64,000 nt of DNA from Escherichia phage vB_EcoM-RPN226: sequence record OL770073.2; one strand, 5' to 3'. The position numbers and the translations under genes are program-made. Of this stretch, positions 1,561-64,000 are shown piece after piece; the stretch's first letter is position 1; each line of letters begins with the position of its first letter. Below the pieces are notes generated by a model. That model saw only the letters and a list, made by a program, of their open reading frames with translations. It made no database searches and was not told where the DNA came from.

Positions 1561-2841
1561 TTCATCAACGATAATTTTTGGTAATTTAACACCTAATAAA
1601 ACAGACAAATCTGAACGACCCGCCATTTTATCCATGTCTCCACCATCAATTATTCTTGCTTCTTTTTCATCTTTTGCTACAGTGTAAGGATTTGCAGATA
1701 AAGCATATCTAACCAATAAACCGATAGATGGTTGTAAGCTTTCTGGATCAACCACAACTTTAAATGCACCTACATGTTCAGGGTCATCTAAGTCGAGACC
1801 TTCTGTATACGGAGCATAGAAAATTGATCCGACAATTTCTTTTTCACCAATATTTTCTACTACGCCAACGATTACATAATCTAATGGGCTGTTAGTATCG
1901 CAATAAAGCGGTAAACCATTAGCTAAGAACCCATAGGCATTTTGTGAAAGATATTTATCATCTTCTGGTTTATGTTTTAACCAACCTGATGCAGCAAGAA
2001 TCGCAGCGGCACGAGCTGAAGCAACACAGAACGTTGCAGTATAAGTTGATTCTTTTTGGATATGCGAAACCATTTCACATACCATTCGGTATAATGAACG
2101 ACCAGCTTCAGGTGCAGATGCATAACTCAAATCGATGAATCCACTATCAGTAATTCCTGTAACTTTATAGCGTTTTGACACTGTAATCAAAGACTGCAGA
2201 ATATCTTTATTGATTTCATCTGCCATTTCAGTTGCAAGCAAATCTTCCAAGAAATTAGGAGCATCGAATCCATTTGCTTCTAAATCTTGCGCTAATTCAA
2301 CTGTGATGCCAGTTTTAAGTTTACGAGATTTAACCGCGGTTTGCCATTTATTAATCTGGAATCTAGCATCCGCAATTTCACTATCAGAGCTTTCAAATTT
2401 GCTTGTTGACGCTGCGTCAGAAAATAGACGAACCTTTAAAAGAACAATTGCAATCTGAAGAGCTAGCTCTAAGTCACTTTCTTGAATATCTGCAAATGGT
2501 GTATCTTCTAACACTTTATAGACGATATTATTATATTTGAATAAATCGCCTTTATTGAGAGTTAATTTAGACTCTTCTGTTAATTCTGTGATTTGTTCTC
2601 GGTCTACGTATCCAGCTTCGCCAGCATAAGTAGCACCAGTTTTAAATGTAAATTCGTTATCTGGGTTAAGGTATTTGATACCGTAAAAAGCAGCAACAGG
2701 TTGATTAGTTCTTTGCGTTGCTACAATGTCAGAATATATTAATTTAGTGGTAGCGCGAGTCAAAGCAACGAGATTTGGGCGACCGATTGAGTTGCTATTC
2801 GTTGTGGTTGATTCGCGCAGAAGTTCGTTGATTTTAGCCAT
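1558..2841 (-). CDS. 24: head vertex protein gp24
   Basis: 427 aa, gp23-like fold paralog, sits next to gene 23 as in T4; late promoter TATAAATA upstream on minus strand. Confidence 0.9.
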   Translation of the reverse strand: MAKINELLRESTTTNSNSIGRPNLVALTRATTKLIYSDIVATQRTNQPVAAFYGIKYLNPDNEFTFKTGATYAGEAGYVDREQITELTEESKLTLNKGDLFKYNNIVYKVLEDTPFADIQESDLELALQIAIVLLKVRLFSDAASTSKFESSDSEIADARFQINKWQTAVKSRKLKTGITVELAQDLEANGFDAPNFLEDLLATEMADEINKDILQSLITVSKRYKVTGITDSGFIDLSYASAPEAGRSLYRMVCEMVSHIQKESTYTATFCVASARAAAILAASGWLKHKPEDDKYLSQNAYGFLANGLPLYCDTNSPLDYVIVGVVENIGEKEIVGSIFYAPYTEGLDLDDPEHVGAFKVVVDPESLQPSIGLLVRYALSANPYTVAKDEKEARIIDGGDMDKMAGRSDLSVLLGVKLPKIIVDE

Positions 2842-2868
2842 TGCGCTTTCCTTTTGGTTTATATGATT

Positions 2869-2876
2869 TATTTATA
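2869..2876 (-). promoter_or_regulatory. late promoter (TATAAATA) for gene 24
   Basis: TATTTATA on plus strand 28 nt upstream of gene 24 start; second copy at 2899-2906. Confidence 0.6.
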
Positions 2877-2915
2877 CTTTTCACGTGATGTGATAAAATA
2901 TTTATAGGAGGATTT

Positions 2916-4427
2916 ATGTCTATTGATATTTATAAAGATAAAAATGGCAAGCTGAACAAGAACTGGAAAATGATACACGCTAAACACCCTGAAATCATTG
3001 ATAGTATTGAGTTGCCATATGATGACCCTAAAACAAAAATCGTTTTAGCGATAAACGGAATGACAGAACTTAGCCGCTGTAAAAACTGTGGTGTTGAGAT
3101 GGATATCTCGAAGCTTGGCTCAGATTATTGCTCTAGAAAGTGTTCAGCTAACTCATCTGAAGTTAAGAGGAAAAAGCTTGATAGCATTAATCTTGAAGAA
3201 CGCGGCAAAAAAATTTCTGAATCTCTTAAAGGTAAATCCACTGCAAAATCTTGGAATACTCGTAAGAAAAAGTATGGTGAAAAAGGATTTAGCCAAACTG
3301 GGATAGAAGCTATCAAAAATAACGGAGTTAATTCTAGCGAAAAACGAATTAATACAATGATTACCCGTTATGGAGTTAAAAACCCGTTTCAACTGGAAAG
3401 CGTGATTGAAACTATATCCAAGGTTCAAACAGAGAATAACACCGCACGAAACCATTTACCCGGTTGGCTGTATGATAAGAATAAATTTAAACAAGTTTAT
3501 TCTAAATCTGGAATTAGAGGAATAATCAAAAAATCTGGCTGCGGTGCAAATTTAGCATATGTTTTATCACGTGAATATCAGCTCCGAGATATGAAAACTA
3601 CTTCGGCCGAAACAGAGATTCTGAGTTTTATTAATGAACTCGGGTTTGAAGCAGAGAAGACGCGCCAAGTGATAGCACCTTTTGAGCTGGATATCTATGT
3701 CCCAGAGAAGAAGCTTGCTATTGAGTTCAACGGTCTTTACTGGCACAGTTCAGGCTCAAAGGAACAGGACATTATTAAGAATAACCATCTCAAAAAGACT
3801 GAGATGTGTGAAGCACAAGGAATTCATCTGCTGCATATCTTCGAGAATGAATGGGTAGATGATACTAAACGCGAGATATGGAAATCGGTTATTAGAAATA
3901 AACTTGGTAAATCTGAACGCATCTATGCGCGTAAATGTAAGGTACATCCGGTTGATTCTAGAGCTGCTAAAGAGTTTTGTGAGTATAACCATTTACAGGG
4001 TCATGTCCCATTCCAGAATGCCCTGGGTTTATTCTATAACGATGAATTAGTACAGTTGGTCACATTTGGCAGAGGCCGCTATCAAGGTAAAACCGAATTA
4101 CTTCGTATGTGCACAAAACGTGGATACAGCGTAGTAGGTGGTGCTTCAAAACTTCTCAAGGATAAGAAATTTATTTCTTATGCTAACCGTAGATGGTCTA
4201 TGGGTAATGTGTATCAACAGATCGGTATGAAACAGATTGGTGTTACTCCGCCGTGTGACTATTATTTTGATAAAGGCCGTCTGTATCACAGGTCAAGTTA
4301 TATGAAACACTTATTAAAAGACAAGCTCAAAGTTTTTGATGAAAATCTTAGCGCGATAGAAAACTGTTATAACAACAAAATAAGAAGAATTTGGGATTGT
4401 GGTAATATAGTTTATGAATCCCAATAA
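2916..4427 (+). CDS. putative homing-endonuclease-like protein with Vsr/PD-(D/E)xK-type nuclease core and N-terminal Cys cluster
   Basis: 503-aa ORF antisense to the late cluster between genes 23 and 24; strong RBS taggagga; CKNCG...CSRKC zinc-finger-like cluster; FELDIYVPEKKLAIEFNGLYWHS resembles Vsr/DUF559 motif; no GIY-YIG motif. Confidence 0.55.
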   Translation: MSIDIYKDKNGKLNKNWKMIHAKHPEIIDSIELPYDDPKTKIVLAINGMTELSRCKNCGVEMDISKLGSDYCSRKCSANSSEVKRKKLDSINLEERGKKISESLKGKSTAKSWNTRKKKYGEKGFSQTGIEAIKNNGVNSSEKRINTMITRYGVKNPFQLESVIETISKVQTENNTARNHLPGWLYDKNKFKQVYSKSGIRGIIKKSGCGANLAYVLSREYQLRDMKTTSAETEILSFINELGFEAEKTRQVIAPFELDIYVPEKKLAIEFNGLYWHSSGSKEQDIIKNNHLKKTEMCEAQGIHLLHIFENEWVDDTKREIWKSVIRNKLGKSERIYARKCKVHPVDSRAAKEFCEYNHLQGHVPFQNALGLFYNDELVQLVTFGRGRYQGKTELLRMCTKRGYSVVGGASKLLKDKKFISYANRRWSMGNVYQQIGMKQIGVTPPCDYYFDKGRLYHRSSYMKHLLKDKLKVFDENLSAIENCYNNKIRRIWDCGNIVYESQ

Positions 4428-4435
4428 ACGAAAAA

Positions 4436-4467
4436 AAGGGAACCCGAAGGTTCCCTTTTTATTTTCT
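4436..4467. terminator. bidirectional terminator between 503-aa gene and gene 23
   Basis: hairpin GGGAACC-CGAA-GGTTCCC with A-run before and T-run after. Confidence 0.7.
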
Positions 4468-4477
4468 AAATTAAATC

Positions 4478-6043
4478 TTAGATACCTTTCACGTATACAC
4501 GGCGGAAGTAAGCATTTTTACCAAGGCTATTCAGAATAGAAGGCATACCGCTCTGGATGCGAGAAGCCGGAGCCTGAGCAGCGGATTCTGCAAATGGGTT
4601 GATACCGATACCGTAACGAGTTTTGAAACCCATAACAGGCTGGAAATTTTTCGGATCAGAACCACGCAGCGGAGTCAGAGCTACATATGGAGCATAGTAA
4701 ATACCAGCATCCATTTCGTTCGGACCTTTATAACCTACAGTGAAATAATCCTGTTTAGCATACTGGTCGATATATACACGGTATTTACCACCCAGAACAC
4801 CAGCAAATACTGACTTGGTAGTATCAGTGTTAAAGCCGGTAGCCAGACCCTGTGCAGCATAAGAAATGCCAGTATCAACTGAAGCCAGAACGTTAACTAC
4901 GTTACGGGAAGCGATAATGAAGTTACCTTCACCACGACCGGTCTGACGAGCAATTTCAACTGCTTCTTTGTCAATCTGGAACAACAGAGCTTTAAAGGAT
5001 TCACCCGCCCAGCGAGCACCACGAATATCAATCGGATCCTGGAAGTCAAATACACCAGCTTTAGAACCCGGAGTCAGGGTCATACCAGATTTACCAACCT
5101 GAGCTGAGTAGTTAATCCAATCAACAACTTCACGGTTGATTTCCAGCATGATTTCGGTAGCCAGAATACCAGACAGTTCAGCATCAGCATCCATACCGTG
5201 AACAGCGCGGAGGTCTTGTGCTAATTCGATAGAGTAAGCAGCTTTCAGCTGACGAGATTTAGCTTCGATAACTTGTTTATCGATACGGAAGCCCATTTCA
5301 TTCCATGGGTTATCGGTAGAACCGTTGAAACTTTCCTGGAGTTCAGCGATAGAAGTAGCCATACCTTCAGCGATTTCTACCAGTGCACCAGCTTCCATTT
5401 GTTTCTTAATTTCAGCATCTAATTTAGCTGCGTCAGTTGCACTTGAACTAATTGTTACTTGAGCAGAAGCTTGCAGATACACAGTACCAGTGTCCTGGAA
5501 GAAGTGAGTATAGATATCACCTGCTGTGGTTTGTGTGCTAGCAGCCAGAGCTGCGAATTTCTTAGCAGCACCCTGACCAGAGAACATTGCATCTGGACCA
5601 TACATTGGGTGGAATGCTTCTTTAGCACCAGAAGCGACCGGGTCTTTACCATATACTGCGCGCAGTGCGAATACCTGGCCAGTCGGGCTGTTCATCGGCT
5701 GAACACCGCAAATATCGAAAGCAATCAGGTTAGGAATAGCACGACGTACCATACCCATAACAGCTGGGCCAATCTGAGTTACTGCGCCAGAAGTCTGACC
5801 TGCAGCGATGTTGGTAGCATTGTAACCGTGGTCACCGCCGATTTCAGCTTCTGTTAAGAAAGAACCAAATGCCTGAGCAATTTTTTCGTCTTTGTACTCT
5901 GGAGCTGTCTGGAAATCTTTTTCCTGGTTTTCAAAGATTTTAGCGATAATCGCTTGTTTGCTATTAGCAATTTCCGGTAAACCTTCACCTTCCAGTAATG
6001 GCTTCCATTTGTTCAAAAGTTCAGCTTTAGTTTTGATAGTCAT
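4478..6043 (-). CDS. 23: major capsid protein gp23
   Basis: 521 aa, MTIKTKAELLNKWKPLLEGEG... matches remembered T4 gp23 almost residue for residue. Confidence 0.95.
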   Translation of the reverse strand: MTIKTKAELLNKWKPLLEGEGLPEIANSKQAIIAKIFENQEKDFQTAPEYKDEKIAQAFGSFLTEAEIGGDHGYNATNIAAGQTSGAVTQIGPAVMGMVRRAIPNLIAFDICGVQPMNSPTGQVFALRAVYGKDPVASGAKEAFHPMYGPDAMFSGQGAAKKFAALAASTQTTAGDIYTHFFQDTGTVYLQASAQVTISSSATDAAKLDAEIKKQMEAGALVEIAEGMATSIAELQESFNGSTDNPWNEMGFRIDKQVIEAKSRQLKAAYSIELAQDLRAVHGMDADAELSGILATEIMLEINREVVDWINYSAQVGKSGMTLTPGSKAGVFDFQDPIDIRGARWAGESFKALLFQIDKEAVEIARQTGRGEGNFIIASRNVVNVLASVDTGISYAAQGLATGFNTDTTKSVFAGVLGGKYRVYIDQYAKQDYFTVGYKGPNEMDAGIYYAPYVALTPLRGSDPKNFQPVMGFKTRYGIGINPFAESAAQAPASRIQSGMPSILNSLGKNAYFRRVYVKGI

Positions 6044-6061
6044 TTGTGTTAACCTTTAAAA

Positions 6062-6871
6062 TTAGAAACGAGATGCGACTTTCGCATATACACTTACAAT
6101 ATCTTCTGCACCAGGTGCAGCTTTATCTTCTACAGCTTCAGTGACGAAATTCAGTCCGGCTGCTTCAGTATCAGGAGTATTTATACCCTCAGTAATAGTG
6201 CTTTCATCTTTATTAGACTTCTTCACCATTTCTACGATGGCACTCAATTTATTTGAGAATTCATCTGAATAATCCATACCTTCGACCAGAGCAGAGACTT
6301 TTTCTTTTTGAGACTCAGTCAGATCTTTAGTACTTTCGCTCAATGCCACTTCACGCTGCACATAATTGATATATGCGTCACGCTTATTGAGTTCTTCGAA
6401 CAGACGAGCTGATTCTTCTTTATGTTCTTGCAGCTCTTCTTCCATTTCAGCCACAACATCAACTGATTCTTCTGGAACAACAACGTTGTGTTCAACAAAG
6501 AGCTCTTTTAATCCACCAAGCATGGATTCAAACAGTTCGGCTTTGATGCCTTTATCAACTGCTAATTTATTTTCAGCGAGCCATTCTTTCGCAAGATGGT
6601 CAATGAATTTAGAAGCTTGCTCAGCGATTTTCTTCTCAGCTTTTTCTTCGGCTTCTTCTTTATTTTTTTCTACTTCTTCTTCTGCTTTTTCAGCAATTTT
6701 AGCGATATGAGATTCAGCTAATTTAACGGCGTGCTGCTTGACGGTAGCTTCGAATACAGTGCCGAAAGTTTCTTTTGCTTCCGGAGAAATATTAACTGAT
6801 TCGAAAATACTATCAAGAGCAACGGAAGCATCAATTTTTTGCGCTTCAGCAATCAGTTGTTCTTTAAGCAT
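6062..6871 (-). CDS. 22: prohead scaffolding core protein gp22
   Basis: 269 aa, highly acidic and coiled-coil rich, position between 21 and 23. Confidence 0.85.
   Translation of the reverse strand: MLKEQLIAEAQKIDASVALDSIFESVNISPEAKETFGTVFEATVKQHAVKLAESHIAKIAEKAEEEVEKNKEEAEEKAEKKIAEQASKFIDHLAKEWLAENKLAVDKGIKAELFESMLGGLKELFVEHNVVVPEESVDVVAEMEEELQEHKEESARLFEELNKRDAYINYVQREVALSESTKDLTESQKEKVSALVEGMDYSDEFSNKLSAIVEMVKKSNKDESTITEGINTPDTEAAGLNFVTEAVEDKAAPGAEDIVSVYAKVASRF
6178..6185 (-). promoter_or_regulatory. late promoter (TATAAATA) for gene 23, inside gene 22
   Basis: TATTTATA on plus strand about 135 nt upstream of gene 23 ATG. Confidence 0.55.
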
Positions 6872-6898
6872 TTTGTAGTCCTGTTGTTTAGATAATAA

Positions 6899-6906
6899 TA
6901 TTTATA
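6899..6906 (-). promoter_or_regulatory. late promoter (TATAAATA) for gene 22
   Basis: TATTTATA on plus strand 28 nt upstream of gene 22 start. Confidence 0.55.
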
Positions 6907-7540
6907 ACGCTTTTTTCATGGCCTCTGCAAGAGCCATATAGGCGTCATCGGCACTTGTATCGGCTTCCGCCGTCTGTGATTCGGTAATTTCCTTAGGAGT
7001 TACCCATGCATCTGGAGCACTTGGACCCCATACTGCATCAACACCTACAGTTAATTTGAATCCTTCGTTTACGATACGATAACCTTTATTTGTGTCAGTC
7101 AATGAACCTAATCCACGAGAAGAAACTCCTGGAATCCATCCGGCACGAATATTAGCTGCTAATTTATCTCCAGGACCGTGGTCACCTTCAATAACACGAG
7201 CTCGTCCGTATACGTCATTTCCTTTCCACCACATATCTTCTATAATGATAGCGGCTTGCATCGGGTCAACATTAGCGCGTGGAGGATGATTTAATTCTCC
7301 GAGAGCTTGTTTAGTTAAAACTTGCTCATTAATATAGTCTTTTACCGCTTTTTCTAATATGCGTTTTGGATAAAGACGTTTATTTCTATTGACGACTTCT
7401 GCTTGCATGAATATTCCTTCGATGTATAAACCCGGTTTTAAACCTAAGTCTTTTCCATCGTGGGATTCAAGCATTGGCACACCATCAATAATTTCGCCAG
7501 GTTGACCCCAAGTTTCAATTAGTAATTGGGGTTCATTCAT
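6902..7540 (-). CDS. 21: prohead core protease gp21
   Basis: 212 aa, position and length match T4 gp21. Confidence 0.85.
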   Translation of the reverse strand: MNEPQLLIETWGQPGEIIDGVPMLESHDGKDLGLKPGLYIEGIFMQAEVVNRNKRLYPKRILEKAVKDYINEQVLTKQALGELNHPPRANVDPMQAAIIIEDMWWKGNDVYGRARVIEGDHGPGDKLAANIRAGWIPGVSSRGLGSLTDTNKGYRIVNEGFKLTVGVDAVWGPSAPDAWVTPKEITESQTAEADTSADDAYMALAEAMKKAL

Positions 7541-45486: not shown

Positions 45487-46289
<803 letters not shown>

Positions 46290-47237: not shown

Positions 47238-47777
47238 ATGAGAACATTTTTAACTGGTCCTTATCTATCCCTGATGAATGCTTTTACACACCATTCTGAT
47301 GCTAGAGTAGAAGAAATTTGTAAGAACGGTTATGCCCCACCATTTGAAGACGTACTCAAGCAGTACTGTACACTTCGTTTAGACGGCGGCAGACAATCAG
47401 GTAAATCGACTGCAGTAACTAATTTTGCTGTTAATTGGCTGCACGACGGTGGAACAGTTATTGTTCTTTCTAATACTTCAGCTTATGCTAAAATTTCTGC
47501 TGGCAACATTAAAAAAGAATTTTCTCGTTATTCTAGCGATGATATTAGATTCCGTTTATTTACTGATTCTGTCCGTAGTTTTATTGGCAATGAAGGTTCT
47601 AAATTCCGCGGATTAACGCTTTCTCGTATTCTGTATATAATTGACGAGCCTATTAAAGCTCCTGATATGGATAAGATTTACAATGTCCATATTAAAGCAA
47701 TACAGCACTGCTGCAAAAGCAAATATTGCATCGGCGGTATTGCTCGTCCTCAATTTTTTGTGATTGGAATGCAATGA
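47238..47777 (+). CDS. small P-loop NTPase-like protein
   Basis: Walker A-like GGRQSGKST and Walker B-like ILYIIDEP; start at ATG 47238 after AGAGAGA. Confidence 0.45.
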   Translation: MRTFLTGPYLSLMNAFTHHSDARVEEICKNGYAPPFEDVLKQYCTLRLDGGRQSGKSTAVTNFAVNWLHDGGTVIVLSNTSAYAKISAGNIKKEFSRYSSDDIRFRLFTDSVRSFIGNEGSKFRGLTLSRILYIIDEPIKAPDMDKIYNVHIKAIQHCCKSKYCIGGIARPQFFVIGMQ

Positions 47778-48082
47778 TGACCACTATTGAAGTTTTTGAG
47801 TATTGTTATAACAGCCCAGTATGCAATAAAAGGGCTGTTGTAGAAAATTACGAGATTTACCATTTTAAACCTAAACGATATCGTTTGACTAAAGGTCCGT
47901 TTGCAGGGCAGCAGGTTCTTTGTACTGCTCCTAATGCAAGATTAATGAATAAAATTCCATATTTTACCATGGAATTTATTGATGGGCCTTTTAAAGGACT
48001 AATCACACAGAGTTTAATGGCATATGATTCTGAGCCATTTTTAATTAAAGAGCAATCTTGGATAAATTTATTTTCTAATTGA
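47774..48082 (+). CDS. hypothetical protein
   Basis: ATGATGA overlap with previous gene; Cys-rich N-terminus. Confidence 0.4.
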
Positions 48083-48090
48083 GAGGTTAT

Positions 48091-48453
48091 ATGAAAGCAT
48101 ATCAAATTCTTGAAGGCACGCATAAAGGTACTATTTATTTTGAAGACGGTATTCAAGCACGAATTATTGTCTCTAAAACCTTTAAAGAGGACTCTTTTGT
48201 AGACCCAGAAATTTTCTATGGTTTGCATGCCCGTGAAATTGAAATTGAGCAACAGCCTACAGTTAAAATTGAAGGTGGTCAACACCTGAACGTTAACGTT
48301 CTGCGCCGTGAAACTCTGGAAGATGCAGTTAAGCATCCAGAAAAATATCCGCAGCTGACCATCCGTGTATCCGGTTATGCAGTTCGCTTTAACTCTCTGA
48401 CTCCGGAACAGCAGCGCGACGTTATCGCTCGTACCTTTACCGAGAGTTTGTAA
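48091..48453 (+). CDS. autonomous glycyl radical cofactor GrcA/YfiD-like protein (T4 Y06I-like)
   Basis: C-terminal 60 aa including glycyl-radical motif RVSGYAV matches E. coli GrcA as I remember it; start ATG 48091 after GAGAGG. Confidence 0.85.
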
Positions 48454-48674
48454 TGGCAAAGATAATTATTGAAGGTTCTGAAGATGTGCTAAATGCTTTC
48501 GCCGAGTGGTTTAGTAATTCAGGCGAACAGCAATTTAATGAAGCGTGGAACATGGGTGATATTAGTGGAATTTATCCTACGACAGAAATTTCTGTTCAGG
48601 GATATGGCATTCATGAACCTATTCATTTAGTTGAATATGATTTGGGTACTGGTGAGGAAGTAAAATATGATTGA
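48453..48674 (+). CDS. hypothetical protein
   Basis: 73 aa, TAATG coupling to upstream gene. Confidence 0.4.
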   Translation: MAKIIIEGSEDVLNAFAEWFSNSGEQQFNEAWNMGDISGIYPTTEISVQGYGIHEPIHLVEYDLGTGEEVKYD

Positions 48675-53681: not shown

Positions 53682-53882
53682 ATGCTGACACACGAACAGT
53701 TTGAAAAAATCATTAAATTAGCACGTGATGTTGAAATAGATTCATATCAATTAGCAGTTGAGCATTGTGAAGGATATTCATATGAAGGTATAGCAGCAGC
53801 TAAAAGAGATTTGGATGAATCTAAAGCTAAGTTAGTTCAATATCTTGAAATGATTAGGTGGAATAATGAAAACTGTAGTTAA
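53682..53882 (+). CDS. hypothetical protein
   Basis: 66-aa ORF, similar helical composition to previous small ORF. Confidence 0.4.
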   Translation: MLTHEQFEKIIKLARDVEIDSYQLAVEHCEGYSYEGIAAAKRDLDESKAKLVQYLEMIRWNNENCS

Positions 53883-54876
53883 GTCTTATTTTGGTAGTCA
53901 TCTTTATGGAACTTCTACTCCAGAATCTGATGTAGATTTTAAAGAAATCTTTGTTCCTCCTGCTCGTGATATTCTTATTGGAAATGTTAAAGAGCATATG
54001 AGCAAAAACACTAACAACACATCATCTAAAAACACTAAAGATGATATTGACCATGAACTATACAGTCTTAAGTATTTCTTTAAATTAGCAGCAGATGGTG
54101 AAACCGTAGCATTGGATATGCTCCACACTCCACCTGAACTGGTAGTTAAATCTGATTTGCCTGATGTATGGAAGTTTATTCAAGACAATCGTTCTCGTTT
54201 TTATACGACTAACATGAAATCCTATTTAGGATATGTCCGCAAGCAAGCTTCTAAATACGGTGTCAAGGGTTCTCGTTTGGCCGCATTACGTGATGTATTG
54301 AAAGTAGTTAATCAAATCCCTGACCAGTGGGTCGACTATCAAGAAGGAATCCCTGATAGACTTCGTCGCACTAAAGTTGAAGATATTAAGCATCGTCTTC
54401 CAGAAAACGAGTTCTGCGAATGGGTATTCTATAATCATGAGAAAACAGGCCCGCAAACGTTCTATACTGTGTTGAGTCGTAAATATCAGACTACACTTTC
54501 TCTTATTGAGCTTAAGCAGTCTTTGAATAAACTTGATGCTGAATATGGTGAACGTGCTCGTAAAGCTGAAGCGAATGAGGGTATTGACTGGAAAGCTCTG
54601 AGTCATGCTTGTCGTGGTGGACTCCAACTATTGGAAATTTACAAAACCGGTGACTTAGTTTATCCACTTCAAGACGCTCCATTTATTCTCGACGTGAAGC
54701 TGGGTAAGCATCCATTTAAAACTGTTCAAGAGTTTTTGGAAGATGTGGTCGATCAAGTAGAAGCAGCATCCATTGAAGCTTCTAAGAACGGTATGCAACA
54801 AAAAGTAGACATGGGTTTCTGGGATGACTTCCTTGAGAGGGTTTATCTTGAAAACCATCGAAGTTATTATAAATGA
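53866..54876 (+). CDS. Pol-beta-superfamily nucleotidyltransferase-like protein
   Basis: N-terminal signature GSHLYGTSTPESDVDFKEIFV (GS, spacer, DxD); 336 aa; followed by strong terminator. Confidence 0.55.
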   Translation: MKTVVKSYFGSHLYGTSTPESDVDFKEIFVPPARDILIGNVKEHMSKNTNNTSSKNTKDDIDHELYSLKYFFKLAADGETVALDMLHTPPELVVKSDLPDVWKFIQDNRSRFYTTNMKSYLGYVRKQASKYGVKGSRLAALRDVLKVVNQIPDQWVDYQEGIPDRLRRTKVEDIKHRLPENEFCEWVFYNHEKTGPQTFYTVLSRKYQTTLSLIELKQSLNKLDAEYGERARKAEANEGIDWKALSHACRGGLQLLEIYKTGDLVYPLQDAPFILDVKLGKHPFKTVQEFLEDVVDQVEAASIEASKNGMQQKVDMGFWDDFLERVYLENHRSYYK

Positions 54877-56423: not shown

Positions 56424-56951
56424 ATGAATGCTAAAGATATTTTCAACTTGGTAAATTACAACGATGGTAAATTTAAATCTGAAGCACAAAGCAAGTTCTT
56501 TAATGACATCTCAATCGGAGGTGAAATCACAGTTGATGGAGGACAAATTTACAAATCCCGTTGGAATTGGATCGTTATTATTGATGAGATTGGTATTGTC
56601 GAAATTTACAAAAATACGAATAAAAATCGTACATTACACTGGTCTCGTGATACTAACGAACAGTACAAAAAGGATAAAGCATCTAAATTATCTCGTGTAA
56701 CTCAAGAAGATATTGAGTTCATCAAGAAAGATATTTTAATGTATGATAACTTAATTGCTGAAGAGCAAGCTGTTATTGATAAATTTGATGAGATTAAAGC
56801 TTCTCGTGAAATTCCTGATTTTATGAAAGAATCAGTAAATGAACGATACACTCTCATTTCAGAGCGTATTGAAACTTACAAAAAGCAAAGAGCTGAACGC
56901 CAAAATACTCTTCGGAAGTTTGAAGAACGGTTAAAGACGGTACTCGCATAA
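56424..56951 (+). CDS. hypothetical protein with C-terminal coiled coil
   Basis: start ATG 56424 after GGAGGAA, downstream of early promoter. Confidence 0.45.
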   Translation: MNAKDIFNLVNYNDGKFKSEAQSKFFNDISIGGEITVDGGQIYKSRWNWIVIIDEIGIVEIYKNTNKNRTLHWSRDTNEQYKKDKASKLSRVTQEDIEFIKKDILMYDNLIAEEQAVIDKFDEIKASREIPDFMKESVNERYTLISERIETYKKQRAERQNTLRKFEERLKTVLA

Positions 56952-57006
56952 CCGCTTTATACCAAGGATGGTATAATGGTTCTAAGCCCTTTTAATTGAG
57001 ATTATT

Positions 57007-57414
57007 ATGAAACAGTTGATAATTAAAAGATTGAATTTATTGATATGTTGTTTATGTGTAGTAGTTGCATACGGTTATTACGCAATTAATGATTATATGC
57101 ATTATAAAGATTATGATGTTACTGTAGTTAATACCATTACAGGAACACAAGGAAAAGGGTCTAGTTTATCGTTTATTGCCGTATATGAACTTAAAGACGG
57201 TTATAGATTTAGTGAATATATTTCCCCAGAGATGTATTCTTCAATAGAAAAAGGTGATAATATTACTGTAAGTTTACGTCCTTTCGACGTAAAACAGACA
57301 CTGTTTGATAATATTGTTTGGTTCTTTGGGATGGTATTAGTTCAATCCGTGTGTGGCGCTTATGTAGTCTGTTCAATCATATTCTGTGTATTTAGTAAAA
57401 TTGAAATTGAGTGA
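57007..57414 (+). CDS. membrane protein
   Basis: N-terminal and C-terminal hydrophobic helices. Confidence 0.4.
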   Translation: MKQLIIKRLNLLICCLCVVVAYGYYAINDYMHYKDYDVTVVNTITGTQGKGSSLSFIAVYELKDGYRFSEYISPEMYSSIEKGDNITVSLRPFDVKQTLFDNIVWFFGMVLVQSVCGAYVVCSIIFCVFSKIEIE

Positions 57415-59406: not shown

Positions 59407-60333
59407 ATGACTCGTAAACATTATATTGATTATTTTGACAGTCTTATTACTAAACACCACAATTATCAGATCGGACACAGAGCAGTAATTAATAATATTC
59501 TTCGTGATTTCCTTCAATATGTTGGCCAGGAAAATCATATCTGTAAAGATACTCAAAACGCTTATTCTCATTCGTTAGGCAATTTGCTTGAATGGTTTAA
59601 ACGTTCTCGTATGTTATCTTCTACTGTAGCTCGCGATAACATTAAAAACTTTATGAAGCCGAGATTCATTAAAACTGCGACATCTATAACCGATTTGGTT
59701 GAATTTACTATTATTAACGATGTTAAAAAGACCCATTTAGCTGATTGGTTATCTACCATTCCTGAAACTAAATTTGCTGATAAATTCGCTTGTCAATTCA
59801 ATGACCAAGTGAATATGCTTTTTAAGCATGCTCGTAAACTATTTACCGCGGGCGATGACCGTACAAATACAGTTCATGTTAAGGACTGGGTTATTGCTGA
59901 TGAAGTAACACACAAACCAGGTGGTTCATCAGTATTAATTAATATCCAGGTTCCTTATTATTACTCACGTAATCTCGGCACCATGACAGCTAGAGAAATT
60001 AATAAGCATAACAAAACTATTCGTTCGTTGTCTTATAAACTCTGCACGATGGTGGAGATGATGGACGTAGTGGAAATGTATGATGAAACCGAAGATAATG
60101 ATTCAATGCTGTACAGTTCACGCATTCTAATTAAACTGAAGAACCCTAATACGTATAAGCCAGTTGTAAAAGAACCTAAAGTAGAAAAGGTTGATAACTT
60201 GAGCGAAGAACGTGAATATCTCAATGCTCGTTTGATTGAAGTTGAAGCCCAAATTGCAGAACACACCAAATTGTTAAAAGCTCTTAATGCAAAAGCAAAT
60301 GGTTTACGTAATGCTATTGAGGTACTGAAATGA
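59407..60333 (+). CDS. hypothetical protein with C-terminal coiled coil
   Basis: start ATG 59407 after GAGGAG, downstream of TATAAT early promoter. Confidence 0.45.
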   Translation: MTRKHYIDYFDSLITKHHNYQIGHRAVINNILRDFLQYVGQENHICKDTQNAYSHSLGNLLEWFKRSRMLSSTVARDNIKNFMKPRFIKTATSITDLVEFTIINDVKKTHLADWLSTIPETKFADKFACQFNDQVNMLFKHARKLFTAGDDRTNTVHVKDWVIADEVTHKPGGSSVLINIQVPYYYSRNLGTMTAREINKHNKTIRSLSYKLCTMVEMMDVVEMYDETEDNDSMLYSSRILIKLKNPNTYKPVVKEPKVEKVDNLSEEREYLNARLIEVEAQIAEHTKLLKALNAKANGLRNAIEVLK

Positions 60334-60626
60334 AAAAGCGCTTATTAGAAGATATTGCCGAAGCTTCAGATTTTCCTGAATGGACTCCATGCGCTGGGTT
60401 TGATAAAGGGCTGCTAGTTACCGACGATTTAGACTTTAAACCTCCAGCATGGGATGCCATTATGGCTATGGTTAGTCGTCGTGAGCAATCTTCTAAGAAT
60501 GTTCCAAACTGTCCAAAGTGTGGTACTGAACAGGTACAATTAGTTCATTGGCAGACTAGTAATCTTCGTTATAAATGTCGTCATTGTAAACACCGATTTG
60601 ACCGAGAAGAAAATGACCAAGCGTAA
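60330..60626 (+). CDS. zinc-ribbon protein
   Basis: CPKCG...CRHCKHRF four-Cys zinc ribbon; ATGA overlap with upstream gene. Confidence 0.45.
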
Positions 60627-60855
60627 AGAATATATGGAGACTGCTGAAAAGGCAGTCCGTGAATTAGCAATAGCTTATTATAATGAACATGGTAAATTTC
60701 CTGATAGATACAGCGTGCTTAAATCAGCTTTAACTCGTTCATATAAAAATATGCTATCAGAAGTAAGTGATATTATATACAAACATAAAGAACAAACAGG
60801 TCAAAGTCTTGATTACGACGAGACTTTTAAACAAGTACTAGGAATTAAGGAATAA
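60613..60855 (+). CDS. hypothetical protein
   Basis: start chosen at ATG 60613 after GAGAAG. Confidence 0.35.
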
Positions 60856-60856
60856 T

Positions 60857-61120
60857 ATGTTTAAAGTATATGGTTATGATAGCAACATCCATAAATGTGT
60901 GTATTGCGATAATGCAAAACGTCTCTTGACTGTGAAGAAACAGCCGTTTGAATTTATCAACATTATGCCAGAAAAAGGTGTTTTTGATGATGAGAAAATC
61001 GCTGAGCTTCTGACTAAACTAGGTCGTGATACTCAAATTGGATTGACGATGCCTCAGGTATTTGCTCCTGATGGAAGTCATATTGGTGGATTTGACCAAT
61101 TGCGGGAATACTTTAAATGA
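60857..61120 (+). CDS. nrdC: thioredoxin/glutaredoxin NrdC
   Basis: 87 aa with CVYC active site; matches T4 thioredoxin. Confidence 0.9.
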   Translation: MFKVYGYDSNIHKCVYCDNAKRLLTVKKQPFEFINIMPEKGVFDDEKIAELLTKLGRDTQIGLTMPQVFAPDGSHIGGFDQLREYFK

Positions 61121-61332
61121 TGTTCGAAGGAACTGATTATATCCATGACTACCGCGGAAGCGCGGTATATGTAGGTGATGAAGTCGCAGTTTATTACGGG
61201 TATGGAACTTTGATGACAGCAAAGGTTATTCAAATTAAAAATGGCCGCGCTAAACTCGAAGTTTATTATTCTAACGGTGAAAGGTCTATTTCTAAATGGA
61301 AATATGGCGATTGCATGGTCAAACTGGGGTAA
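61117..61332 (+). CDS. hypothetical protein
   Basis: 71-aa ORF, ATGA overlap with nrdC. Confidence 0.35.
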   Translation: MMFEGTDYIHDYRGSAVYVGDEVAVYYGYGTLMTAKVIQIKNGRAKLEVYYSNGERSISKWKYGDCMVKLG

Positions 61333-61941: not shown

Positions 61942-62406
61942 TTGATATGGAGATGGGACATGATTACAGTAGATAAGTGGTTTAGAATTAATCGTGCTGA
62001 TAAAGGGCTGTGTAATTATTGGCCGGAACTTAGTGCAGGTACTGTCTTTAAAGTTCGTGAACTTGCAAAAGAATGCGAAGATGATATAGAACCTGATACT
62101 GGAATTATTGAAATTGAACTTTCTGATGGAAAGATTATTAACATCTACGATAAGCCAATTACGTATTGGTGCTTGTGGAATACTGAATCAGTAGAAAATG
62201 GCGAGATTGAAGAAGTTGTAGAACGAGTTGATCAAGCTATTCATAAACCTAAAGCCGCTTTTCAAGGTGAACGCATTTCATATGCATTAGCTAAATTAGC
62301 TGCGCAAGAAAATAACGATGGTTATGAAGGAAATTTGATGCAAGCTGCGGCAGAATATATTGAATGGCTTGAAACTCAAATTTCTTTTTCTGACCGAGCG
62401 TTTTAA
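61942..62406 (+). CDS. pin: hypothetical protein, positional candidate for Lon protease inhibitor PinA
   Basis: 154-aa ORF directly upstream of gene 49 where pin sits in T4; start uncertain. Confidence 0.45.
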   Translation: MIWRWDMITVDKWFRINRADKGLCNYWPELSAGTVFKVRELAKECEDDIEPDTGIIEIELSDGKIINIYDKPITYWCLWNTESVENGEIEEVVERVDQAIHKPKAAFQGERISYALAKLAAQENNDGYEGNLMQAAAEYIEWLETQISFSDRAF

Positions 62407-62425
62407 TACTTGAAAATAATAAATA

Positions 62426-62455
62426 CCCTTATCTATTCAAGGTAAGGGTTTTATT
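62426..62455 (+). terminator. candidate terminator/attenuator between pin-like gene and gene 49
   Basis: CCCTTA-11 nt loop-TAAGGG stem followed by TTTTATT. Confidence 0.4.
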
Positions 62456-62929
62456 ATGTTATTGACTGGCAAATTGTACAAAGAAGAAAAACAAAAATTT
62501 TATAATGCACAAAACGGTAAATGCTTAATTTGCCAACGAGAACTAAATCCTGATGTTCAAGCTAATCACCTTGACCATGACCATGAATTAAATGGACCGA
62601 AAGCTGGAAAGGTACGTGGATTGCTATGTAATCTCTGTAATGCTGCAGAAGGTCAAATGAAGCATAAATTCAATCGTTCTGGCTTAAAGGGACAAGGTGT
62701 TGATTATCTTGAATGGCTAGAAAATTTACTTACTTATTTAAAATCCGATTACACCCAAAATAATATTCACCCTAACTTCGTTGGAGATAAATCAAAGGAA
62801 TTTTCTCGTTTAGGAAAAGAGGAAATGATGGCTGAGATGCTTCAAAGAGGATTTGAATATAATGAATCTGACACTAAAACACAATTAATAGCTTCATTTA
62901 AGAAGCAGCTTAGAAAGAGTTTAAAATGA
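62456..62929 (+). CDS. 49: endonuclease VII (Holliday junction resolvase)
   Basis: 157 aa, zinc-binding CLICQ...CNLCN and HLDHDH motif; matches T4 gp49. Confidence 0.9.
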   Translation: MLLTGKLYKEEKQKFYNAQNGKCLICQRELNPDVQANHLDHDHELNGPKAGKVRGLLCNLCNAAEGQMKHKFNRSGLKGQGVDYLEWLENLLTYLKSDYTQNNIHPNFVGDKSKEFSRLGKEEMMAEMLQRGFEYNESDTKTQLIASFKKQLRKSLK

Positions 62930-63469
62930 CAATTGAAAAAGAAATTGAAGGATTGATTCATAAAACTAATAAAGACCTTTTAAACGAGAATGCTAATAAA
63001 GATTCTCGTGTTTTTCCAACTCAACGGGACCTTATGGCTGGTATTGTGTCTAAACACATTGCCAAAAATATGGTCCCGTCTTTTATTATGAAAGCGCATG
63101 AAAGCGGAATTATTCATTTCCATGATATTGATTATTCCCCTGCTCTTCCATTTACTAATTGCTGTTTAGTAGATTTAAAAGGAATGCTTGAGAACGGATT
63201 TAAGCTCGGTAATGCACAGATTGAAACTCCTAAATCAATCGGTGTTGCTACTGCAATTATGGCACAAATTACTGCACAGGTTGCTTCCCATCAATATGGC
63301 GGAACGACTTTTGCGAATGTAGATAAAGTACTTTCTCCTTATGTTAAACGCACCTATGCAAAACATATTGAGGACGCAGAAAAATGGCAAATCGCTGATG
63401 CGTTGAATTATGCCCAATCTAAAACAGAAAAAGATGTATACGATGCATTCCAAGCTTATGAGTTAACGT
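62926..63469 (+). CDS. nrdD: anaerobic ribonucleotide reductase NrdD, exon 1 (interrupted by group I intron)
   Basis: ATGA overlap with gene 49; reading frame continues into intron sequence; exon/intron junction position approximate. Confidence 0.75.
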
Positions 63470-63667
63470 AAGTCAAGCTCATGTAAAATCTGCCTAAAAC
63501 GGGAAACTCTCACTGAGACAATCCGTTGCTAAATCAGCAGTAGCTGTAAATGCCCAACGACTATCCCTGATGAATGTAAGGGAGTAGGGTCAAGCGACCC
63601 GAAACGGCAGACAACTCTAAGAGTTGAAGATATAGTCTGAACTGCATGGTGACATGTAGCTGTTTAT

Positions 63668-63691
63668 CCTCGTATAAATATGAATACGAGG
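63668..63691 (+). promoter_or_regulatory. hairpin containing late promoter and Shine-Dalgarno of I-TevII
   Basis: 7-bp stem CCTCGTA/TACGAGG; TATAAATA at 63673-63680 in 5' arm/loop; GAGG SD in 3' arm; ATG at 63699. Confidence 0.6.
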
Positions 63692-63698
63692 TGAAACG

Positions 63699-64000
63699 AT
63701 GAAATGGAAATTAAGAAAAAGCTTAAAAATTGCCAATTCTGTAGCATTTACCTATATGGTAAGATTTCCTGATAAGTCTTTTTATATAGGTTTTAAAAAA
63801 TTCAAAACTATATATGGTAAAGATACAAATTGGAAAGAATACAATTCGTCATCTAAGCTTGTTAAAGAAAAGCTTAAAGATTATAAAGCTAAGTGGATAA
63901 TTCTTCAAGTTTTTGATTCTTATGAATCGGCCCTTAAACATGAAGAAATGCTTATTAGGAAATATTTTAATAACGAATTTATTCTTAATAAATCTATAGG
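63699..64000 (+). CDS. intron-encoded GIY-YIG homing endonuclease I-TevII (partial, 3' end outside window)
   Basis: MKWKLRKSLKIANSVAFTYMVRFPDKSFYIGFKK... GIY-YIG motifs; preceded by TATAAATA and hairpin-embedded SD. Confidence 0.85.
   Translation, partial: MKWKLRKSLKIANSVAFTYMVRFPDKSFYIGFKKFKTIYGKDTNWKEYNSSSKLVKEKLKDYKAKWIILQVFDSYESALKHEEMLIRKYFNNEFILNKSI

Follow-up and report, generated by a model that had tools for sequence, protein, structure and literature searches.

How does a virulent phage come to carry a protein whose last 60 residues are those of a host protein, and what would that protein do in the infected cell? The question is raised by an open reading frame (ORF) of Escherichia phage vB_EcoM-RPN226 (record OL770073.2), located at 48091 to 48453 of a 64,000-nt stretch of DNA that was analysed as a whole and is hereafter called the window. 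An initial annotation of the letters had read this ORF as a GrcA/YfiD-like glycyl-radical spare part with a C-terminus acquired from the host, and had proposed that it repairs the radical domain of a phage NrdD. We hold it to be very probable that the ORF is vs.6 (Y06I) of a T4-type phage, that it encodes an autonomous glycyl radical cofactor, and that it is an old phage homologue in which the 3′ ~175 nt have been swapped for E. coli grcA.

The ORF corresponds to vs.6 of a T4-like phage

The source phage of the window is T4-like and belongs to Tequatrovirus. T4 lysozyme is encoded at 45523 to 46011, and the block vs.8-vs.7-vs.6-vs.5-vs.4 is collinear with the 63-65 kb region of T4, on the opposite strand. 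Many Tequatrovirus records carry a 100% identical Vs.6 protein. The features of the locus are the following.

48081 to 48086, plus strand: Shine-Dalgarno-like GAGAGG, 4 nt 5′ of the ATG, overlapping the vs.7 stop codon TGA (48080-48082); read from the sequence
48091 to 48453, plus strand: vs.6 coding sequence, 120 aa plus TAA; from the ORF list, protein matches, Pfam Gly_radical and PDB 6owr
48091 to 48268, plus strand: phage-native 5′ part, aa 1-59; GC 0.34, GC3 0.23; no DNA alignment to grcA; remote homologue of the GrcA N-terminus
48269 to 48441, plus strand: E. coli grcA-derived tract, aa 60-117, glycyl radical domain; GC 0.50, GC3 0.46
48373 to 48375, plus strand: Gly95 codon GGT, predicted radical glycine in RVSGYAV; from the sequence and the alignments to 6owr and 1h16
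48442 to 48453, plus strand: final three codons and stop (GAG AGT TTG TAA), variable among phages; E. coli has GAA AGC CTG TAA

The program-made ORF list places the start at a TTG codon (48079), which would give 124 aa. The ATG at 48091 is the true start, because of the Shine-Dalgarno-like sequence and the agreement with all annotated orthologues, and it is also the start given by the initial annotation. At the other end, the vs.6 stop and the vs.5 start overlap (TAATG, 48451-48455), the vs.5 ATG beginning at 48453. A scan around the gene indicated no promoter dedicated to vs.6 (8 promoter-like sites, versus 10 expected from shuffled sequence). We infer that vs.6 is the Y06I of the biochemical literature, because it is the sole GrcA-like locus in the listed T4-type records (one per record) and its size fits that of the ~14 kDa Y06I.

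The surroundings of the gene show further departures from T4. In vs.7 (ORF 47726-48082), the segment 47781-47900 is ~50% identical to T4 and fFiEco06 and 97-100% identical to Mosigvirus mogra, RPN187 and LF82-7, while the remainder of the gene is T4-like (92-98%). Recombination between phage genera has left a patch here, ~200-300 nt upstream of the vs.6 gene, and this is the reason why most Tequatrovirus matches are split into two aligned pieces. T4 nucleotides 56456-57300, where the homing endonuclease gene mobD and the beginning of mobD.1 lie, had no blastn match in the window, which suggests that this phage is devoid of mobD, with the junction at ~53856, adjoining nrdC.11 (ORF 53866-54876). 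The nrdC.1-nrdC.3 region (59410-61121) is 77% identical to T4, compared with ~95% for its neighbours.

Vs.6 combines a PFL-type radical domain with a divergent GrcA N-terminus

The assignment of the ORF to GrcA/YfiD-like spare parts was borne out. Pfam Gly_radical (PF01228) matches aa 60-101 (E = 2.5e-18, 67 bits; cut-off 22.2), and the top solved relative in a phmmer search of the PDB is E. coli YfiD/GrcA (6owr, E = 9e-42). Second comes pyruvate formate-lyase (PFL), residues 697-759 (1h16, E = 5e-26), with 49/63 residues identical (78%). The radical domain is of the PFL type, other glycyl radical enzymes appearing in the PDB search at E = 4e-12 or weaker. Residues 61-120 of Vs.6 are identical to GrcA 68-127 at all 60 positions, RVSGYAV included, just as the initial annotation had stated; neither a low identity to GrcA nor loss of the radical Gly motif, the two signs named as speaking against a GrcA relationship, is seen. 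Around the motif, aa 91-100 align identically to both 6owr and 1h16, Gly95 being the equivalent of GrcA G102 and PflB G734.

The N-terminal half is divergent, as had also been claimed: its identity to GrcA is 36% over 39 aa (BLASTP E = 1e-5). When profiles of the phage N-terminal half and of the bacterial GrcA N-terminal half were compared with hhalign, they matched over 59 columns (probability 95.4%, E = 1.7e-8). The 5′ half of vs.6 thus encodes a remote, full-length homologue of the GrcA N-terminus and no foreign filler. Against the NCBIfam equivalog TIGR04365 (spare_glycyl), Vs.6 scores 154.9 bits (alignment aa 20-120) and E. coli GrcA 233.9; the phage protein stays under the cut-off of 170 because its N-terminus is divergent. 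Vs.6 nevertheless has the size of the small stand-alone (~14 kDa) cofactor, with 120 aa of which the C-terminal half is the glycyl radical domain. Taking together size, PFL-type domain, motif and homologous N-terminus, Vs.6 can be classed, by predicted structure, among the autonomous glycyl radical cofactors.

The radical-domain segment matches E. coli grcA at the DNA level

Nucleotide alignment to E. coli grcA had been proposed as a way to detect recent transfer, and it did reveal one. ORF nucleotides 179-363 (48269-48453) align to grcA with 96.8% identity (179/185, E = 2e-80) in 5,426/5,426 complete E. coli genomes, a match well outside what chance would give. The leading 178 nt give no DNA alignment to grcA, and at most 51% of the vs.6 ORF is covered in any E. 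coli genome. Within 48269-48441 there are 3 differences from E. coli grcA (48306, 48339 and 48441), all of them synonymous. Base composition changes at the same place: GC is ~0.31-0.36 upstream of the junction and 0.46-0.51 in the 3′ part, and GC3 goes from 0.18-0.25 in the phage 5′ half to 0.39-0.46 in the tract, E. coli grcA having 0.44. In the vs.6 gene of this phage, GC3 rises from 0.23 to 0.46 at the junction. A class of E. coli phages that seemed to carry a longer grcA-like tract (grcA nt 155-384) was discarded; BLAST had extended the match through chance similarity, and alignment placed the same junction in these phages.

In this phage, T4 and a Mosigvirus, the tract shows 96.6-98.3% identity to E. 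coli grcA and no more than 91% to grcA of any of 80 other bacterial species; the donor was Escherichia. The vs.6 gene is a mosaic: in an old diverged phage grcA homologue, the 3′ ~175 nt, which correspond exactly to the radical domain, were replaced by recombination with E. coli grcA. The earlier claim of acquisition from the host is hence upheld for this 3′ segment, by E. coli-specific DNA identity, the jump in GC3 and the vertical descent of bacterial grcA, and does not extend to the gene as a whole, which is an older phage homologue.

Strong purifying selection acting on an anciently shared domain, codons included, could in principle keep the tract close to E. coli without any transfer, and the domain is indeed highly conserved as protein across phage and bacterial homologues. 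Other phages, however, keep the same protein domain at 63-85% nucleotide identity and with a phage-like GC3; in jumbo phage fHe-Yen9-04, the domain has a GC3 of 0.10 and 63% nucleotide identity to E. coli. Moreover, T4 compared with Jiaodavirus KP179 or Karamvirus CC31 has diverged at synonymous sites to the same extent in the two halves of the gene (pS 0.47-0.61). The preference for E. coli over all other species, the sharp junction and the jump in composition also speak against it. Protein-level constraint thus does not explain the near-identity of the tract, and we count this explanation, to which we give hardly any credence, as refuted.

As near-identity alone carries no direction, the same data might be read as E. 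coli having taken the 3′ part of its grcA from a T-even phage. Both halves of E. coli grcA nevertheless diverge to a similar extent from those of other bacteria (5′/3′ identity: Citrobacter 88/92, Salmonella 84/84, Enterobacter 85/85 and Klebsiella 84/86%), which fits vertical descent; the GC3 of the tract matches that of E. coli (0.44) and not that of the phage (~0.2); and the tract is present in all 5,426 E. coli genomes. A reverse transfer, which we likewise count as refuted, is extremely improbable. Since both bacterial halves diverge in step with phylogeny and the composition of the tract is host-like, the direction of transfer was from host to phage.

The tract postdates the divergence of the two phage genera

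The junction was aligned in three Tequatrovirus and four Mosigvirus genes. All of them share one sharp 5′ junction, with GTTAAAATT on its 5′ side and GAAGGTGGTCAACAC on its 3′ side, and variability among them is renewed only in the last three codons, so the 3′ edge of the tract probably lies at these codons and the stop (48442 to 48453). Over 174 nt (48271-48444), the number of differences from E. coli grcA is 1 in T4, fFiEco06 and RPN187, 2 in mogra, 3 in LF82-7 and phiC120, 4 in this window, 26 in KP179 and 34 in CC31. When Tequatrovirus and Mosigvirus genes are compared with each other, the 5′ half gives pS values of 0.28-0.40 and the tract values of 0-0.115 (Fisher p 0.006 to 2.6e-5), and sliding windows show 70-88% identity in the flanks and 97-100% in the tract. 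The tract is therefore younger than the separation of Tequatrovirus and Mosigvirus.

The replacement is recent, either post-dating the separation of the two genera or having passed between them. Separate entries at the same homology-defined boundaries, or one entry followed by phage-to-phage recombination, might each have produced the present distribution, and the data fit both equally. The phage-to-phage route is available, because the 5′ part of vs.7 (~47781-47900) of this phage is itself Mosigvirus-like.

GrcA homologues are spread among phages

Homologues of Vs.6/GrcA were found in 1,588 phage records, comprising T4-like phages of several genera, T5-like phages, jumbo phages, and Aeromonas and Vibrio phages. 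Those outside the Tequatrovirus/Mosigvirus group (Jiaodavirus, Slopekvirus, Karamvirus, Krischvirus, T5-like Demerecviridae, Aeromonas and Vibrio T4-likes, and Eneladusvirus jumbo phages) have the same architecture, with a conserved GGQHLNVNV...RVSGYAVRF domain, and occupy genomic positions different from that of vs.6. In T5-like phage Stitch, for instance, the homologue adjoins a tRNA cluster. The DNA of their radical domain is 63-88% identical to any bacterial grcA sampled, with a best value of 89.8% for KP179, and they therefore show no recent E. coli patch; none was seen in RB49, CC31 and the T5-likes. A full-length host-like grcA was not found among the phage homologues.

The phages of Klebsiella and Enterobacter were compared with the grcA of their hosts. 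The LLDAVEH variant, typical of Klebsiella and Salmonella GrcA, occurs in Klebsiella phages KP179 and Matisse, and the Jiaodavirus tract is 88-90% identical to Klebsiella-type grcA, compared with 83% to E. coli. No near-identical donor was found for Klebsiella and Enterobacter phages among 80 bacterial grcA loci and in a metagenome scan for the LLDAVEH variant, the best bacterial identities being 89.8% for KP179 and 84% for Matisse. Enterobacter phage CYPEBC003 carries E. coli-type and no Enterobacter-type residues. The Jiaodavirus gene may reflect an older conversion event; for KP179 and Matisse, any transfer would be older or would come from an unsampled donor. In KP179 (Jiaodavirus; locus positions 301-663), GC3 of vs.6 is 0.20 in the 5′ half and 0.56 in the tract, above that of E. 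coli grcA.

Several records of this family deserve mention on their own. In T4-type phage RB55 (KM607002.1, 63123-64094), a 13-nt deletion (GTTATGCAGTTCG) eliminates the codons for Gly-Tyr-Ala-Val in the radical motif and puts the remainder out of frame, and the vs.6 ORF is unannotated in the record; RB55 carries either a natural or laboratory pseudogene, in which case vs.6 is dispensable in culture, or else a sequencing error. Gene order around the homologue is nrdD-nrdG-vs.6-nrdC-nrdH in Aeromonas phage Ah1 (locus positions 2367-5947), where nrdG and vs.6 share 4 nt; Yersinia jumbo phage fHe-Yen9-04 (locus positions 2779-7043) has the order nrdD-g131-grcA-g133-g134-nrdG. Labels given to the family are inconsistent: 'hypothetical protein', 'pyruvate formate-lyase', '2-ketobutyrate formate-lyase', 'formate acetyltransferase', 'acetyltransferase-related protein' and, in Stitch, 'ribonucleotide reductase subunit'. 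PHROG 1209 still bears the label 'unknown function', although the biochemistry dates from 2001.

Vs.6 is predicted to rescue host PFL

In the genomics literature, vs.6 was listed among the conserved T4 ORFs without known function, with a guess at nucleotide metabolism (Nolan et al., 2006; PMC1524935). Its biochemistry had been described earlier. In the passages that PMC8683613 and PMC13450708 devote to the work of Knappe's group (Wagner et al., 2001; BBRC 285:456), YfiD and T4 Y06I, once activated by PFL activase, are each reported to bind oxygen-cleaved PFL and to restore its activity. The radical passes from GrcA G102 to PflB C419 (PMC12338860). As Vs.6 of this phage is identical to T4 Y06I at 118/120 positions, we predict by analogy that it is a PFL spare part as well.

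The steps of PFL rescue are established for E. coli YfiD and T4 Y06I, and near-identity carries them over to the protein studied here. The host PFL activase PflA would install the radical on Gly95 of Vs.6; the C-terminal domain of Vs.6 would then dock into a host PFL in which oxygen has cut the radical domain at G734; the radical would move from Vs.6 to PflB C419, and pyruvate would again be converted into acetyl-CoA plus formate. Taking into account that the phage shuts off host expression, Vs.6 could keep fermentative energy, acetyl-CoA and formate flowing in a microaerobic infection. The benefit to the phage would accordingly lie in the supply of energy or of formate.

Vs.6 might alternatively act as a manipulator, its phage-type N-terminal half redirecting the radical domain, for example by sequestering PflA or by occupying PFL, and so altering carbon flux. 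That half is conserved among phages while being ~27-36% identical to the bacterial GrcA N-terminus, and in YfiD the N-terminus affects how PFL-AE installs the radical, a role which has been called enigmatic (PMC13450708). The sequence nevertheless gives no sign of an added domain, and the passage of PMC8683613 on T4 Y06I has it reconstituting PFL as YfiD does. We consider such a manipulator very improbable, and favour PFL rescue.

Direct repair of NrdD is unlikely

The initial annotation also stated that NrdD, a glycyl-radical enzyme, is encoded in the same window. This is correct for the first exon and the start of the intron, which are all that the end of the window contains; the glycyl-radical end of the protein falls outside.

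62926 to 63471, plus strand: nrdD exon 1 (context, outside vs.6), 181 codons, followed by an in-frame stop inside the group I intron

The T4 nrdD region matches window positions 62342-64000 at 95.8%. The gene is broken after codon 181 by the group I intron, as in T4, where I-TevII is annotated inside the intron. The NrdD radical domain and nrdG are located beyond the end of the window; in blastn and tblastx searches of the window with the T4 nrdD region, no nrdG was found, the match being restricted to 62926-64000. Ten further ORFs, most of them between 53866 and 60333, were examined by Pfam as NrdD candidates and none is NrdD.

The idea that Vs.6 serves as a spare radical domain for the phage NrdD, taking the place of an oxygen-cleaved C-terminus, draws on genome context. 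In Ah1 and fHe-Yen9-04 the GrcA homologue is part of the nrdD/nrdG cluster, NrdD is present in every checked phage group with a GrcA homologue, and nucleotide metabolism was also what Nolan et al. had guessed. The proteins themselves tell otherwise. Vs.6 has no similarity to the C-terminal 117 aa of T4 NrdD (BLASTP E = 17, with the motif region unaligned), T4 NrdD terminates in RRTCGYLGNPNERGFNLGKNKEIMHRVKHQ preceded by a Cys-rich segment, and the homologues of Ah1 and of the jumbo phage are PFL-type too. The activity attributed to the protein in the relevant passage of PMC8683613 is PFL rescue with PFL activase, and in T4-type phages vs.6 lies ~14 kb from nrdD. As Vs.6 lacks similarity to the NrdD C-terminus, whereas its domain is identical to that of GrcA and shares 49/63 residues with PflB, direct repair of NrdD, as had been proposed, appears quite unlikely, and we assign it a very low probability.

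The gene neighbourhoods are explained equally well by PFL-made formate as reductant of NrdD, formate being the reductant of NrdD1-type class III reductases, T4's included (PMC4493059). Because PFL makes formate, an indirect link is plausible, and is the simplest reading: sustained PFL activity would support anaerobic dNTP synthesis along with energy supply. In a broader and more speculative form, which we put forward as possible and rather less than even in probability, the radical module of vs.6 would be repeatedly overwritten by the grcA of the current host, in a one-domain conversion, and the gene might be kept because PFL formate feeds the phage NrdD. Such a need would account for the presence of GrcA homologues within nrdD/nrdG clusters of unrelated phages.

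Significance and comparison with known systems

Both vs.6 and what its product does biochemically have been on record since 2001, and no new biology is claimed for them here. Phage genomics papers seem to have overlooked that biochemistry, and the published function could replace the inconsistent annotations of the family, including that of PHROG 1209. In the limited set of papers searched there was no earlier report of the DNA-level mosaic, which, with its dating, is at most a modest addition to a known gene. Its interest lies in offering a clean and datable case of a virulent phage acquiring a segment of a host gene through recombination with a homologue that it already carried, with a donor identifiable to species and one recombination boundary at a domain edge. 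The repeated adjacency to nrdD/nrdG suggests, in addition, a metabolic link in which PFL would provide formate for dNTP synthesis by the anaerobic reductase at low oxygen.

The closest known system is T4 Vs.6/Y06I (NP_049730), the same gene in the same position (vs.8-vs.7-vs.6-vs.5) and of the same length (120 aa). The proteins differ at two residues, Q54 versus P and R73 versus H, and the genes by five synonymous and two non-synonymous changes. T4 vs.6 shares the mosaic junction and the E. coli-like tract; the neighbouring vs.7 has a Mosigvirus-type 5′ part in this phage, unlike in T4. E. coli GrcA (6owr) has the same radical motif and the same PFL-type domain, with the C-terminal 60 residues identical and DNA at 96.8%, whereas the N-terminal 59 aa of Vs.6 are ~27-36% identical to their E. 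coli counterpart and 7 residues shorter. The genes also differ in setting: vs.6 is expressed from a cluster of the phage early region, and the bacterial grcA locus lies between ung and eamB. In PflB, finally, the corresponding C-terminal domain (697-759) is the end of a 759-residue enzyme, while Vs.6 is a stand-alone 14-kDa protein; it is for this glycyl radical domain of PflB that the spare protein substitutes once oxygen has cleaved the enzyme at G734 (PMC8683613).
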